Origin: Candidatus Bathyarchaeota archaeon
Lineage (GTDB): Archaea > Thermoproteota > Bathyarchaeia > 40CM-2-53-6
DNA length: 64,000 bases
Direction: 5' to 3'
Assembly: GCA_005881615.1 (NCBI GenBank)
Contig: VBBR01000032.1
Span: 3,183 to 67,182, forward strand
Below, piece after piece: positions 10,159-15,109 of this stretch. The first letter of the stretch is position 1; every line of letters begins with the position of its first letter. The translations under genes were made by a program, and so were the position numbers. The notes beneath the pieces are model-generated. The model worked only from the letters and a program-made list of their open reading frames with translations, ran no database searches and had not been told where the DNA came from.

Positions 10159-10274
10159 TGGTGGGCCCGCCCGGATTCGAACCGGGGACCGTCAGGTTTC
10201 CCGAACTTGGGGCTATGAGCCTGCCGCTCTTTCAGTTCTTCAACCTGAAGAAAACCTAGCTGAGCTACGGGCCC
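10159..10274 (-). tRNA. tRNA(CAU) (elongator Met or Ile2) with two introns (D-loop and canonical 37/38)
   Basis: Reverse complement: GGGCCCG-TA-GCTC-AGCTAGGT[TTTCTTCAGGTTGAAGAACTGAA]A-GAGC-G-GCAGG-CTCATA[GCCCCAAGTTCGGGAA]A-CCTGA-CGGTC-CCCGG-TTCGAAT-CCGGG-CGGGCCC-A-CCA. The 7-bp acceptor, T-arm, CAU anticodon and encoded CCA are all in place; both bracketed inserts can form hairpins (BHB-like). Confidence 0.7.
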
Positions 10275-10611
10275 TCCAAGAAAGCCGCTCGCACACACCT
10301 AATTCTTAATGGTTTAGCGCAGACTCAATCCTGTAACGACCTTAATTTGCGACATGTAATAGCTACTCTACGGTATCGGTAAGGTACGTTGTAGCGGTTC
10401 TTGGGACTTTTCTGATTTTGTTTGGGCTCGTTGCACGTTCTACGGGCCTGATGAAGAGTCGAAGAGACTCAAACTATGGTCTGGCGACAGTCTGGTTCAA
10501 TCCCGTTTCTCTCGGAGCGATATTCATACTGGACGGGTTTTTCGTCTTGTAGATGATGCTGCCTATCTTTTAATAAACGGGGCTTGTCGGGTTGTCGGTT
10601 GCCGCCGGCTG

Positions 10612-10760
10612 TATGCGGGCCGCCGTTCCCTCAGAGGTTTGGGGGCGCGAGCTCAGTGGTAGAGCAGCGGACTCGGCTTGTGGCTGAGGCTGAAGCTGTT
10701 AAAGTGGAAGGTCCACTGTAGCAACCCGTTGGTCACAGGTTCGAACCCTGTCGGCGGCGC
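10612..10760 (+). tRNA. tRNA with multiple non-canonical introns; best guess tRNA-Thr(UGU)
   Basis: Perfect 7-bp acceptor GCCGCCG (10612-18) / CGGCGGC (10750-56) followed by G-CCA. Canonical D-arm GCTC-AGTGGTA-GAGC, T-arm ACAGG-TTCGAAC-CCTGT, and a clean anticodon arm CTCGG-CTTGTGG-CTGAG (anticodon TGT). About 70 extra nucleotides are spread between acceptor and D-stem, before the anticodon stem, and in the variable region. Exact exon boundaries unresolved by eye. Confidence 0.5.
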
Positions 10761-11479
10761 CAACTTCGAGAAACCTAGCATTTGGCTGGGGCCACCAGAA
10801 CGACCTGAGACTTGGGTTTGCCCTTGCTCAGGCGTTCTTAAGTGATCCCTTCGTGGTTACAACATTTCTAACTGTCCGGGCCGCTACTTCTGAGCCCATA
10901 TCATCGGCTGTGAGAACGAAAGAGTTCCTTGAGTTCCATGGCACTGTCAACTCTTCGGTTGCTGTTTCTTGTTCTTCGGTCGTCTCTAACTGTTTTGTTC
11001 GAGGAGTGACCGATTATTCGTTAGGGGCGTTCGTCAGATGAGCCCTGTTACGCTTGGGGGAGGTGACTGGTTGGTTGGCCACTGTAAAATCCCTGCCTTG
11101 CAACGGGCCAAGCTACCACGCTACGGGCGTGAGGGGGCGGTTGAGGTTCGACCGTTCCCTGCCGAAAAGAGGCTCGGTGTCCCTGAGGCGCAAGGGCTCT
11201 CAGGTGAAGCAGTGAAGGGGAACCCGATGACGACGGTAATCCTCGGAGTCGATGAGAACAAGTCTAGTCTTCGAACAACCGAAGACTTGACAGAACCAGT
11301 TCCAGCAAACGCTAAGGGAGCTAGAAAGCCAGGTTCGTAAGCTCCTGAAGGAAGCAGCGGAAAGCGGTCCTTCCGAGAGAACCCGGGATCTTACTGGGAG
11401 AGTCTACGATCTGGCCGAACGAGCCAACCAAATTCGGCCCCAAGAAGCTAGGAACCAGTCTACTACCAACCAGTCAGTC

Positions 11480-11881: not shown

Positions 11882-12155
11882 GTAGTTTTCGCATACCGCT
11901 CCACGTATAAGTCGAACTCTCGGTTTGCTGGCAAGTCACTCACTGATCATTTTTCGAACGTTCTTCCGAAAAATAGGCACGCTCTTCTCAAGAAGCGGTT
12001 TGGGAAGATTCATAATCCTTGTCGCCGTTGTGACCTAGGAAATCGCTATCCATGCAAATATGTATCAAAAGATAGAAATCGGATTGATGATTTGTCAATC
12101 CTTATTATTCGCGGCGACGAGTATCGACGATAAGGACGCTTTGACAAATGTAGAT

Positions 12156-13493
12156 ATGCGCCTCAGGGCTGATGCTGAACGACTTTCTCAGTCTTGGCTA
12201 TCAGACCGCTGGAATGGAATCCGTCGGCTTTACTCGGCCGAGGACGTCTGCAAGCTCCGGGGGACCGTCCATCCAGAGTGCACCTTGGCTCGACTCGGTG
12301 CGGAAAAGTTTGAGCGCCTCTTAAGGGACGAGGCGTACATTCCCACTCTCGGCGCTCTGACTGGGGTACAAGCTGTCCAGATGGTCCAGGCTGGGCTCAA
12401 GGCGATCTACATGAGCGGCTGGCAGGTAGCCGCAGACGCTAACCTTTCAGGCCAAACTTACCCTGACCAAAGTCTGTACCCGGCCAACAGTGTTCCGAAT
12501 CTAGTGAAGAGGATCAATCAGGCATTCCAGAGAGCCGACCAGATACAATTCGTGAGTGGCCAAGGGAGAATCGACTGGCTCGCACCGATCATTGCCGACG
12601 CAGAGGCAGGGTTCGGAGGCCCCCTCAACGCCTTCGAACTGATGAAAATGATGATAGAGGCTGGAGCGGCAGGAGTGCACTTCGAAGACCAGCTCGCTTC
12701 AGAGAAGAAATGCGGCCACCTAGGCGGAAAGGTCCTAGTTCCCACTCACCAGTTCATCAAGACTCTGATCGCGGCCCGACTTGCATCCGACATAATGGGC
12801 GTCCCAACATATCTCATCGCGCGAACAGATGCAATGGGAGCCAAACTCTTGTCGAGCGACTCCGATCCGAGAGACCTGCCTTACATGACCGGTGAGAGAA
12901 CCGCGGAGGGTTTCTACAGAATCAAGCCCGGCATAGAGGCTGCCATTGCGCGAGGTATGAGCTACGCGCCTTACGCTGACATCCTGTGGTGTGAGACTTC
13001 CACTCCGGACCTTGAGGAGGCGAGAAGGTTCGCAGATGCTGTTCACAGAGTGTTCCCTGGAAAGCTGCTAGCATACAATTGCTCGCCATCATTCAATTGG
13101 GAGAAACATCTGGATCCGGAGAGCATTCGGCGTTTTCAGAGAGAACTGGGCATGATGGGTTACAAGTTCCAGTTCGTCACATTGGCCGGTTTCCACAGTC
13201 TCTCAGTATCCATGTTCGAGCTGGCGAAACAGTACGCTGTTGAAGGAATGGCGGCATATGTTCGCGTCCAGAGGAAAGAGTTCGAAGCCGAACCTGCAGG
13301 CTACACCGCGGTGAAGCACCAGGCGTTTGTGGGAACAGAATACTTCGACGAGGTCGCAAACGTAATCTCGAGCGGAATGTCTTCGACCACAGCCATGAGC
13401 GAATCTACTGAAGCGGTCCAGTTCAAAGAACAATCCGTTCTGGTACCGCCTCCAGTTTCAAGCACCAAATCTGACCGAGACCGGAACCAGTAG
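12156..13493 (+). CDS. aceA: isocitrate lyase
   Basis: ...[13 protein letters not shown]...[11 protein letters not shown]...[20 protein letters not shown] carries the ICL signature K-K-C-G-H. Start placed at the Met of [14 protein letters not shown], where homology to ICL N-termini begins (ORF-track start 12060). Confidence 0.85.
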
Positions 13494-13495
13494 GT

Positions 13496-15109
13496 TTGCA
13501 CTTATCCGACGAAACGAAAAGCCAATCCGCGCTAGCACTGGAACCGCGAAGCCTCAAAATTACAGGGCCCCACATACAGGGTTTAGAAGAGATACTGACA
13601 CCTGACGCTTTAGCCTTTGTCGGAGATCTTGTTCTAGAATTTTCTCCACGTCTCGAGTCGCTACTGGGGAAGAGAATGATCGTTCACGAGAATCTCCGAA
13701 ACGGAGCACTTCCCGATTTTCTGGAAGAGACACGTGAAATTAGAACATCCGAATGGAAAGTCGGACCTATCCCACCTGATCTTCGACAAAGACGGGTAGA
13801 GATCACTGGCCCGGTCGACCGGAAGATGGTGATAAACGCGCTCAACTCTGGCGCTGATGTCTACATGGCCGATTTCGAGGACTCCCACTCGCCGACCTGG
13901 GAGGGAACCGTTCAGGGCCAAGCTAACCTTCGAGACGCGGTAGACCGGACCATTAGATACACTGGTCCTGACGGCCGAGAGTACAAGTTAGGTGAGAAAC
14001 TTGCAACTCTCATGGTGCGGCCTCGAGGCTTACACCTAATTGAGAAACATGTTCTAATCGAGTCCCGCCCGATTCCAGCTTTCCTCTTCGACTACGGCCT
14101 CTTTCTCTACCACAACGCCAATAAATTGATCAGGCAAGGGACCGGGCCGTACTTCTACATCCCGAAACTCGAGAGCTATCTAGAAGCCCGCCTCTGGAAC
14201 GACATCTTCGACTACTCTGAGAAAACCCTCAAGCTTCCGCGCGCCGGCATAAAGTGCAGTGTTCTAATCGAAACAATTCTAGCCGGATTCCAGATGGACG
14301 AAGTCCTCTACCAATTGCGCGAGAGGATTACAGCCCTCAACCTCGGCCGCTGGGACTACATCTTTAGCCTGATCAAATTCCTGGGCCACGACCCGAGATT
14401 TCTAGTTCCCGAAAGACCCCTCCTCCCCATGACAGCACCCTTCCTCAAGTCCAGCTCCGTTCTATTGGCCCAATCCTGCCACCGACGAGGCGCCTACGCA
14501 ATCGGAGGGATGGCTGCCCAGGTCCCCATCAAAGGCGACCCCCGTTCCCAGGAAGCCATCGACAAAGTAGTCGCTGATAAGACGCGGGAAGTTGCTGAGG
14601 GATACGAGGGCGCTTGGGTCGCCCATCCTGGTCTGGTACCAGTCGTGATGAATGTCTTCGACAGCCGTCCTGTAGAATCTAAGAACATTGAAGCGATTAC
14701 GGAGATAAGCCGCGAGGATCTCCTCAAAGTGCCCGAGCCAAAGATAAGCGAACAGTCTCTAAGAGCAAATGTCGCTGTCAGCCTAAAGTATCTAGAATCC
14801 TGGCTGGGAGGTCTCGGTTGCGTCGCAATCAACAACCTAATGGAAGACACTGCCACGGTGGAAATATGCAGAGCCCAGATCTGGCAGTGGATTCATCACT
14901 CCGCCAAGCTTCTTGACGGCCAGACGATTACGCGCGAGCTGTTCAGGAGAATTTTGAGGGAAGAAACGGCCAGAATAAGTGGAGGAGTCAAATCGCAAGC
15001 CGACGCAGAACCCAATTTCAAGATCGCAGGAGATCTGCTTGACTCACTTGTGACTAGTGATACCTTTTCCGAGTTCATCACGCTGCTCGCCTACAACTAT
15101 CTAAGCTGA
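13496..15109 (+). CDS. aceB: malate synthase A
   Basis: RRVEITGPVDRKMVINALNSGADVYMADFEDSHSPTW plus the length (537 aa) are typical of malate synthase A. Starts 3 nt after the aceA stop. Confidence 0.85.
   Translation: MHLSDETKSQSALALEPRSLKITGPHIQGLEEILTPDALAFVGDLVLEFSPRLESLLGKRMIVHENLRNGALPDFLEETREIRTSEWKVGPIPPDLRQRRVEITGPVDRKMVINALNSGADVYMADFEDSHSPTWEGTVQGQANLRDAVDRTIRYTGPDGREYKLGEKLATLMVRPRGLHLIEKHVLIESRPIPAFLFDYGLFLYHNANKLIRQGTGPYFYIPKLESYLEARLWNDIFDYSEKTLKLPRAGIKCSVLIETILAGFQMDEVLYQLRERITALNLGRWDYIFSLIKFLGHDPRFLVPERPLLPMTAPFLKSSSVLLAQSCHRRGAYAIGGMAAQVPIKGDPRSQEAIDKVVADKTREVAEGYEGAWVAHPGLVPVVMNVFDSRPVESKNIEAITEISREDLLKVPEPKISEQSLRANVAVSLKYLESWLGGLGCVAINNLMEDTATVEICRAQIWQWIHHSAKLLDGQTITRELFRRILREETARISGGVKSQADAEPNFKIAGDLLDSLVTSDTFSEFITLLAYNYLS

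Follow-up and report, generated by a model that had tools for sequence, protein, structure and literature searches.

The 64,000-nucleotide (nt) window analysed here, part of contig VBBR01000032.1 of a Candidatus Bathyarchaeota archaeon assembly (GCA_005881615.1), very probably carries at positions 10619-10762 of its plus strand a gene for an asparagine transfer RNA, tRNA-Asn(GUU), interrupted by three introns of the bulge-helix-bulge (BHB) type. The introns are 23, 24 and 22 nt long, lie at tRNA positions 8/9, 30/31 and 37/38 and add 69 nt in all, which bears out a preliminary description of this DNA that had seen a tRNA gene with three non-contiguous inserts and 'about 70 extra nt'. They separate four exons, the last of which runs through an encoded CCA end (Table 1). 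Shortly upstream of the gene, at 10601-10607, there is a second GCCGCCG, identical to the 5′ strand of the acceptor stem. We tentatively propose a new kind of splicing helper acting in cis: this part of the leader would serve as a surrogate acceptor strand and then be discarded.

Splicing at the proposed boundaries would give GCCGCCGU-AGCUCAGUGGUAGAGCAGCGG-GCUGUUA-ACCCGUUGGUCACAGGUUCGAACCCUGUCGGCGGCG-CCA, a 75-nt RNA made of a 72-nt body, with G73, and the encoded CCA. The 75-mer folds into a perfect cloverleaf with the anticodon loop CUGUUAA and is called tRNA-Asn(gtt) by ARAGORN. The features of a class I tRNA with the anticodon GUU are all present in the spliced sequence: a 7-bp acceptor stem, a D-arm with G18G19, a 5-bp anticodon stem with a 7-nt loop (U33, purine at 37), a 5-nt variable loop, a T-arm with a GTTCGAA-type loop and the discriminator. 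The acceptor strands are GCCGCCG (10619-10625) and CGGCGGC (10752-10758), the latter followed by G73 (10759) and CCA (10760-10762); the D-arm is canonical (AGCTCAGTGGTAGAGC from 10650), and the T-arm reads ACAGG-TTCGAAC-CCTGT (10735-10751). All of these parts had been recognised in the preliminary description.

The exon boundaries were decided by comparison with orthologues. One genome per GTDB species was scanned with the pattern GTAGAGCAGCGG-N(0-30)-GCTGTTAA-N(0-30)-CCCGTTGG, which yielded 77 loci (numbered here with the prefix L), mostly from Bathyarchaeia and also from Nitrososphaeria, Caldarchaeales and a few other groups. The exon 3 sequence GCTGTTAA was identical in 79 of 79 exon-pattern matches. 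Seventy-six genes could be parsed, namely 74 scan loci, the window gene and L004, and splicing by one rule gave tRNA-Asn(gtt) in all 76. No intron was found in 19 of them, one in 10, two in 7, three in 31 and four in 9. The anticodon arm GCGGG-CUGUUAA-CCCGU is identical and uninterrupted in the 19 intronless genes, three of which were scored with the Rfam tRNA model (RF00005) and reached 71-76 bits. One orthologue, L011, equals the predicted spliced product except in the D-loop and T-stem. The JGI contig L004 carries the same tRNA locus together with an isocitrate lyase homologue that is 91% identical; here the differences from the window are confined to the leader spacer and the three predicted intron loops.

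A BHB motif was taken to be a 4-bp central helix flanked by two 3-nt bulges, one per strand, that contain the splice sites; in the motif of the canonical intron, the central helix takes in the first two anticodon nucleotides (PMC4090602). All three introns of the window gene conform to this definition, with inner helices of 3, 7 and 6 bp. The preliminary description had proposed BHB folding as a check, and by the BHB definition three introns can be placed whose removal leaves a cloverleaf. Across orthologues, the central helix of intron 2 (CAGC/GCTG) is present in 53 of the 53 loci with that intron. The intron-side strand of the intron-3 central helix varies (GTAG, GCGG, ACGG, GCAG, ACAG, GTGG, ATAG) with pairing kept in most cases, and L060 shows a compensatory change in the intron-1 central helix (CGTC/GACG). 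When 30 distinct three-intron precursors were aligned, 90.1% of the cells were paired, compared with 36-50% when the partners were slid by 1-3 columns. Changes on both sides were found at every inner-helix pair of the three introns bar one invariant pair in intron 2, with covariation at 5 of 5 tested pairs in intron 1 and 5 of 6 in intron 2, and the exons were invariant; T-stem pairs covary across the orthologues. The motifs are conserved while the intron sequence drifts.

Nine orthologues have four introns, and all of them give Asn(gtt) on splicing. In most of the nine, three of the introns occupy 8/9, 30/31 and 37/38. The fourth intron lies at 50/51 in eight (L021, L022, L033, L045, L055, L070, L080 and L083; an example is L021:3689-3830), where its central helix is GGTC paired with GGCC, GACC, GGCT or GACT. 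In the ninth, L041, it lies in the T-loop.

Three of the loci call for comment. In L080 (DAFH01000062.1, 4890-5100), intron 1 contains a duplicated fragment of exon 2 broken by NN (…AGCTCAGTGGTAGAGCANNGGAGGGCGCG…), and its length of 47 nt is most likely an assembly or scaffolding artefact rather than real. L083 (DASPWZ010000004.1) is labelled Candidatus Dormiibacterota bacterium; its tRNA-Asn is archaeal, has four introns and comes with the leader copy, so this contig has probably been mis-binned. The Planctomycetota locus L046 (JACQRL010000223.1) carries an ordinary bacterial-type tRNA-Asn with the acceptor strand TCCTCGG that by chance has the same anticodon arm.

Parts of the splice motifs are shared with the helices of the mature tRNA: acceptor nucleotides 3-6 and D-stem nucleotides 10-13 belong to the intron-1 motif and nucleotides 25-28 to the intron-2 motif. 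Because of this overlap, the cloverleaf would be able to form only after splicing. The anticodon stem 27-31/39-43 would likewise become available only once intron 2 is gone, and removal of intron 2 probably precedes formation of the full outer helix of the intron-3 motif; a comparable splicing order has been described in other multi-intron tRNAs (PMC8450103). By analogy with what is established for archaea, each motif would be cut in both its 3-nt bulges by the tRNA splicing endonuclease, after which the exons would be joined by a ligase.

The amino acid assignment departs from that of the preliminary description, which had read the hairpin CTCGG-CTTGTGG-CTGAG as the anticodon arm of a tRNA-Thr(UGU), with inserts at the acceptor/D-stem junction (~25 nt), ahead of the anticodon stem (5-6 nt) and in the variable region (~40 nt), and had begun the gene at 10612. 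The hairpin exists (10672-10688), and ARAGORN does draw a Thr(tgt) cloverleaf after ad hoc removal of the three segments, or when introns 1 and 3 alone are taken out, in the latter case with 3 bp in the D stem and a variable loop of 24 unpaired nt. Its position is nevertheless exactly that expected for the inner helix of the intron-2 motif, and it covaries like an intron helix. Among orthologues, the loop that would hold the UGU anticodon differs both in sequence and in length (CTCGCGGG, 8 nt, in L004; CTCGTGG, CTCGCAG, AAGACAA and others elsewhere), whereas CTGTTAA and the stem halves on either side of it, GCGG(G)/CCCGT, are invariant and give the anticodon as GUU. In tRNAs that read ANN codons, position 37 is generally A (t6A), and a G73 discriminator is a feature of tRNA-Asn; the G37 and G73 that a threonine tRNA would have here do not fit that isotype. 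Furthermore, under this reading GCGGA, which separates the D stem from the anticodon stem, would have to be a 5-nt insert; no BHB candidate was found there, and 5 nt is far below the minimum of the 11-129 nt reported for archaeal tRNA introns (PMC4090602). The threonine assignment, with an anticodon arm that is not conserved and a short insert that lacks a splice motif, was rejected as almost certainly wrong. Of the three inserts, the first corresponds to the 23-nt intron 1, while the other two do not exist and are artefacts of the misread arm. The true gene start is 10619, and 10612 matches nothing in particular.

The gene had been expected to escape standard annotation, and it does. ARAGORN reported no tRNA anywhere in the window, and the Rfam tRNA model at its default gathering threshold listed only the neighbouring gene on the opposite strand (10162-10274). 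The lack of a call by standard tools would be compatible with a decaying tRNA pseudogene or tRNA-derived fragment in which the 'introns' are junk insertions. We regard this as extremely improbable: the exons are invariant in at least 45 species-level lineages whose introns and flanks have fully diverged, compensatory changes maintain the intron helices, a TATA-like box is conserved, and neither the window nor the 8-kb orthologous loci yielded another tRNA-Asn gene.

Several observations weigh against the assignment of a three-intron tRNA-Asn gene. Its identity and exon boundaries rest on sequence comparison. BHB-like motifs are no more frequent in the region than expected (16, compared with 12.9 ± 4.3 in shuffled sequences, not significant), and the minimum-free-energy fold of the precursor does not show the BHB helices; thus, energy alone cannot set the exon boundaries. 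With permissive filters, the Rfam model matches the unspliced gene locally at 29.0 bits, a value equal to the gathering score. ARAGORN is permissive in calling cloverleaves, and removing BHB candidates before running it proved unreliable: relaxed criteria produced dozens of spurious cloverleaves from the neighbouring tRNA gene, and even strict criteria gave Thr, Leu, Phe and Pro calls besides Asn for the target gene. Since chance BHB-like motifs are common and ARAGORN is permissive, the structure was decided on orthologues rather than on motif counts. The 29.0-bit match, which spans 10650-10751 (model positions 9-63), pairs GCGGA with CCCGU as its anticodon stem across a 51-nt insertion; this insertion was the first hint that the supposed threonine anticodon arm sits inside an insert.

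A leader copy of the 5′ acceptor strand is present 5-22 nt upstream of the gene at every locus with intron 1 and at none of the loci without it. With 45 nt of leader considered, a contiguous helix of 7-12 bp between the leader and the 3′ acceptor strand can be drawn in 45 of 45 non-redundant intron-1 loci. In the 28 loci without intron 1, the best helix between the leader and the 3′ end has 3-6 bp, and none of them has this clamp. The helix usually runs into G73 and sometimes into C74, C75 and A76; its 7 core pairs are kept in all 30 aligned precursors, and position -1 pairs with G73 in 26 of the 30. The spacer between the two copies is conserved neither in sequence nor in length (5-22 nt). 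A TATA-like box lies ~21-28 nt upstream of the leader copy in all intron-1 loci; where intron 1 is absent, its distance upstream of tRNA position 1 is ~23-28 nt. As the spacing is kept to the leader copy, transcription probably starts there, which is ~18-20 nt ahead of position 1 as judged from the sequence.

Between the TATA-like box and the end of the leader copy, at 10578-10607, the window's lineage has the near-repeats CTTGTCGG-GTTGTCG-GTTGCCG-CCG, each of which could pair with CGGCGGC through G-U pairs. These near-repeats are probably upstream of the transcription start.

In ViennaRNA calculations on the precursor with its leader, the helix between the leader and the 3′ strand had a probability of ~0.99 and the real acceptor stem of ~0; when the leader was omitted, the real acceptor stem reached ~0.93. 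Forcing the intron-1 BHB motif cost 7.0 kcal/mol with the leader and 12.8 kcal/mol without it. We propose that the surrogate strand pairs with the 3′ acceptor strand and G73 and would thereby block the real acceptor stem. The real 5′ strand would be freed, and its nucleotides 3-6 could pair with intron 1 to build the BHB motif. From cleavage until ligation, the clamp would tether the 8-nt exon 1 to the body of the tRNA; afterwards, the real 5′ strand would displace the surrogate, and RNase P would remove the leader. We put the chance that the clamp functions in this manner at even or slightly below.

An alternative is that the upstream GCCGCCG is a neutral relic of the duplication that created intron 1, or an integration scar, and plays no role at the RNA level. 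The exact identity of the copy to the 5′ acceptor strand would fit such an origin, and since one gene family holds all the cases, a single ancestral event could explain the co-occurrence with intron 1. However, the copy is kept in 45 of 45 lineages, although changes have saturated both the neighbouring spacer and the loops of the introns. The only substitution within the copy itself (C to T in L018) preserves pairing as a G-U pair. The complementarity extends to G73 and the CCA, beyond any copy of the 5′ strand, and the pairing with G73 is not explained by a plain duplication of that strand. In L041, L067 and L079, where the leader is not an exact copy, it is complementary in a shifted register to the 3′ strand and follows the trailers of these loci, which do not read CCA. 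Overall, a neutral relic appears unlikely.

The copy could also be the true exon 1, either with a fourth intron between the two copies or spliced directly to A9. The spacing of the TATA-like box to the copy, equal to that to position 1 in genes without intron 1, speaks for this possibility, and the mature sequence would be the same if one repeat period were removed. The fourth intron was tried and rejected: between the copies, no register provides a consistent 4-bp central helix or an inner helix. Splicing from the copy to A9 would also lack an inner helix, and position 8, where U is invariant, would be occupied by G, A, C or U. Pairing of this kind combined with a normal acceptor stem would moreover form a pseudoknot. 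An upstream exon 1 is therefore very improbable, and in view of the missing BHB motif and the loss of U8 we treat the copy as part of the leader.

The clamp function itself faces several difficulties. Neither strand of the leader helix varies in its core, which is conservation and not classical covariation. All examples belong to one gene family, so a single origin could account for their occurrence alongside intron 1. Even after splicing, the nearest-neighbour model still favours the clamp over the real acceptor stem (probability ~0.98 at 37 °C and 0.93 at 60 °C), and the model of the clamp leaves the displacement and removal of the leader and the access of RNase P unexplained. An independent replicate was sought among the other tRNA genes in the fetched loci, which have no acceptor-proximal intron and no leader copy. 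A metagenome scan for a second family with the pattern GGGCCCG-N-GGGCCCGT-N-AGCTCAG returned 120 matches, attributable to chance and lying in GC-rich, mostly bacterial DNA; none of the 120 combined a compatible central helix with a downstream T-arm and 3′ acceptor strand, a result that is uninformative rather than negative evidence.

Table 1. Features of the tRNA-Asn(GUU) gene, its leader and its predicted splice motifs (positions in the window)
Feature	Position	Strand	Basis or description
TATA-box-like element TTTTAATAAA, putative archaeal promoter	10568..10577	+	Sequence; 23 nt upstream of leader GCCGCCG
Leader, proposed surrogate acceptor strand, T-GCCGCCG	10600..10607	+	Complementary to 10752-10759 (CGGCGGC-G73)
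Leader spacer, surrogate strand to tRNA position 1	10608..10618	+	G's at 10617-10618 lengthen the outer helix of the intron-1 BHB motif
Exon 1, positions 1-8, GCCGCCGU	10619..10626	+	Pairs with 10752-10758; invariant U8 follows in all orthologues
Intron 1, 23 nt, position 8/9	10627..10649	+	BHB motif
Exon 2, positions 9-30 (D-arm, A26, anticodon-stem GCGG)	10650..10670	+	Invariant in 30 aligned precursors; Rfam tRNA model match
Intron 2, 24 nt, position 30/31	10671..10694	+	BHB motif; inner hairpin 10672-10688
Exon 3, positions 31-37 (G31, C32-U33-GUU-A37)	10695..10701	+	Anticodon GTT at 10698-10700
Intron 3, 22 nt, canonical position 37/38	10702..10723	+	BHB motif
Exon 4, positions 38-73 (A38, CCCGU, variable loop UGGUC, T-arm, 3′ acceptor strand, G73)	10724..10759	+	Rfam, ARAGORN, alignment; with the CCA end, 10724-10762
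CCA end, genomically encoded	10760..10762	+	Sequence; present in most, not all, orthologues
BHB motif of intron 1			Central helix CGCC (tRNA 3-6)/GGCG (10644-10647); bulges GUU, CGA; inner helix CCC/GGG; outer helix 4 bp
BHB motif of intron 2			Central helix CAGC (tRNA 25-28)/GCUG (10689-10692); bulges GGA, AAG; inner helix 7 bp; outer helix 2 bp
BHB motif of intron 3			Central helix CUGU (tRNA 32-35)/GUAG (10718-10721), with 2 G-U pairs; bulges UAA, CAA; inner helix AGUGGA/UCCACU, 6 bp; outer helix 1 bp before intron 2 removal

The neighbouring tRNA gene at 10162-10274 (minus strand), ~345 nt upstream, is also interrupted. It has the acceptor strand GGGCCCG and the anticodon CAU (Met or Ile2 type), an insert of ~24-29 nt in the D-loop with the hairpin TTCTTCA/TGAAGAA and another of ~16-18 nt at the anticodon loop, and it scores 44.9 bits with the Rfam model. 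The pair of Asn and CAU genes is syntenic in many Bathyarchaeia loci. Adjacent genes for isocitrate lyase and malate synthase (12060-15109, plus strand) encode the glyoxylate shunt; this operon is widely conserved among Bathyarchaeia, and in related contigs genes for Alba and CdvA come next. A protein on NCBI contig WNGD01002293.1 (GCA_009772875.1) matches the isocitrate lyase at 100% identity; close homologues of the enzyme carry the name Candidatus Bathyarchaeota, and its listed open reading frame of 477 amino acids is longer than the recorded protein of 450. From 10940 on (L001:2766), the window shares 98.6% identity with L001, a contig of another metagenome, and upstream of this point the two are unrelated; the breakpoint, ~180 nt downstream of the tRNA-Asn gene, is a strain-level rearrangement beside the tRNA pair. 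The tRNA 3′ end is not repeated in direct orientation in the window, as it would be at an integration site.

A genome whose sole tRNA-Asn gene seen at the locus is invisible to default tools would seem to lack an essential tRNA. Since hairpins within introns may look like anticodon arms, isotypes should be called with care. Our data extend the heavy fragmentation of tRNA genes, with up to four introns per gene, to the widespread soil and sediment Bathyarchaeia. The clamp suggests how an intron may sit at a place where its splice motif competes with the acceptor stem, and it raises the question of the order of 5′-end maturation after splicing. If true, the leader would be a previously undescribed way for archaeal tRNA introns to colonise the acceptor-proximal region.

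Archaeal tRNA genes with several BHB introns at non-canonical sites are known mainly in Thermoproteales (PMC4090602), an example being the tRNA-Pro(UGG) of Pyrobaculum islandicum with introns at 25/26, 37/38 and 56/57 (PMC4090602, citing Sugahara et al. 2007/2008). The window gene resembles them in its three short BHB introns, one canonical and two non-canonical, and in that default finders miss both. It differs in its host and in its conserved leader helix, and its relatives reach four introns. Position 30/31 is a listed non-canonical site, with 3/4 as the extreme case, whereas 8/9 is not among the positions given (PMC4090602). According to reviews and the tRNAscan-SE 2.0 paper, a tRNA gene has at most three introns (PMC4033280, PMC8450103); the window gene is at this published maximum, and nine relatives exceed it. 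Our literature searches, incomplete in coverage, found no description of tRNA introns in Bathyarchaeia, of four-intron tRNA genes or of a helix between leader and 3′ end; the intron position 8/9 and the leader clamp appear to be undescribed.

The closest parallel to intron 1 is the 3/4 intron of Thermoproteales, whose splice motif must likewise use the 5′ acceptor strand and competes with the acceptor stem (PMC4090602). The leader in turn recalls the split and permuted tRNAs of Nanoarchaeum, Caldivirga, Staphylothermus and Thermofilum (PMC4090602, PMC3218864), in which disposable flanking RNA also pairs to build the splicing structure. There, the leader and trailer themselves form the BHB motif and are removed by the endonuclease. 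In the window gene, no BHB register exists between the GCCGCCG copies and the helix between the leader and the 3′ strand is contiguous and free of bulges; the transcript would be a single colinear one, and its leader would presumably be removed by RNase P.

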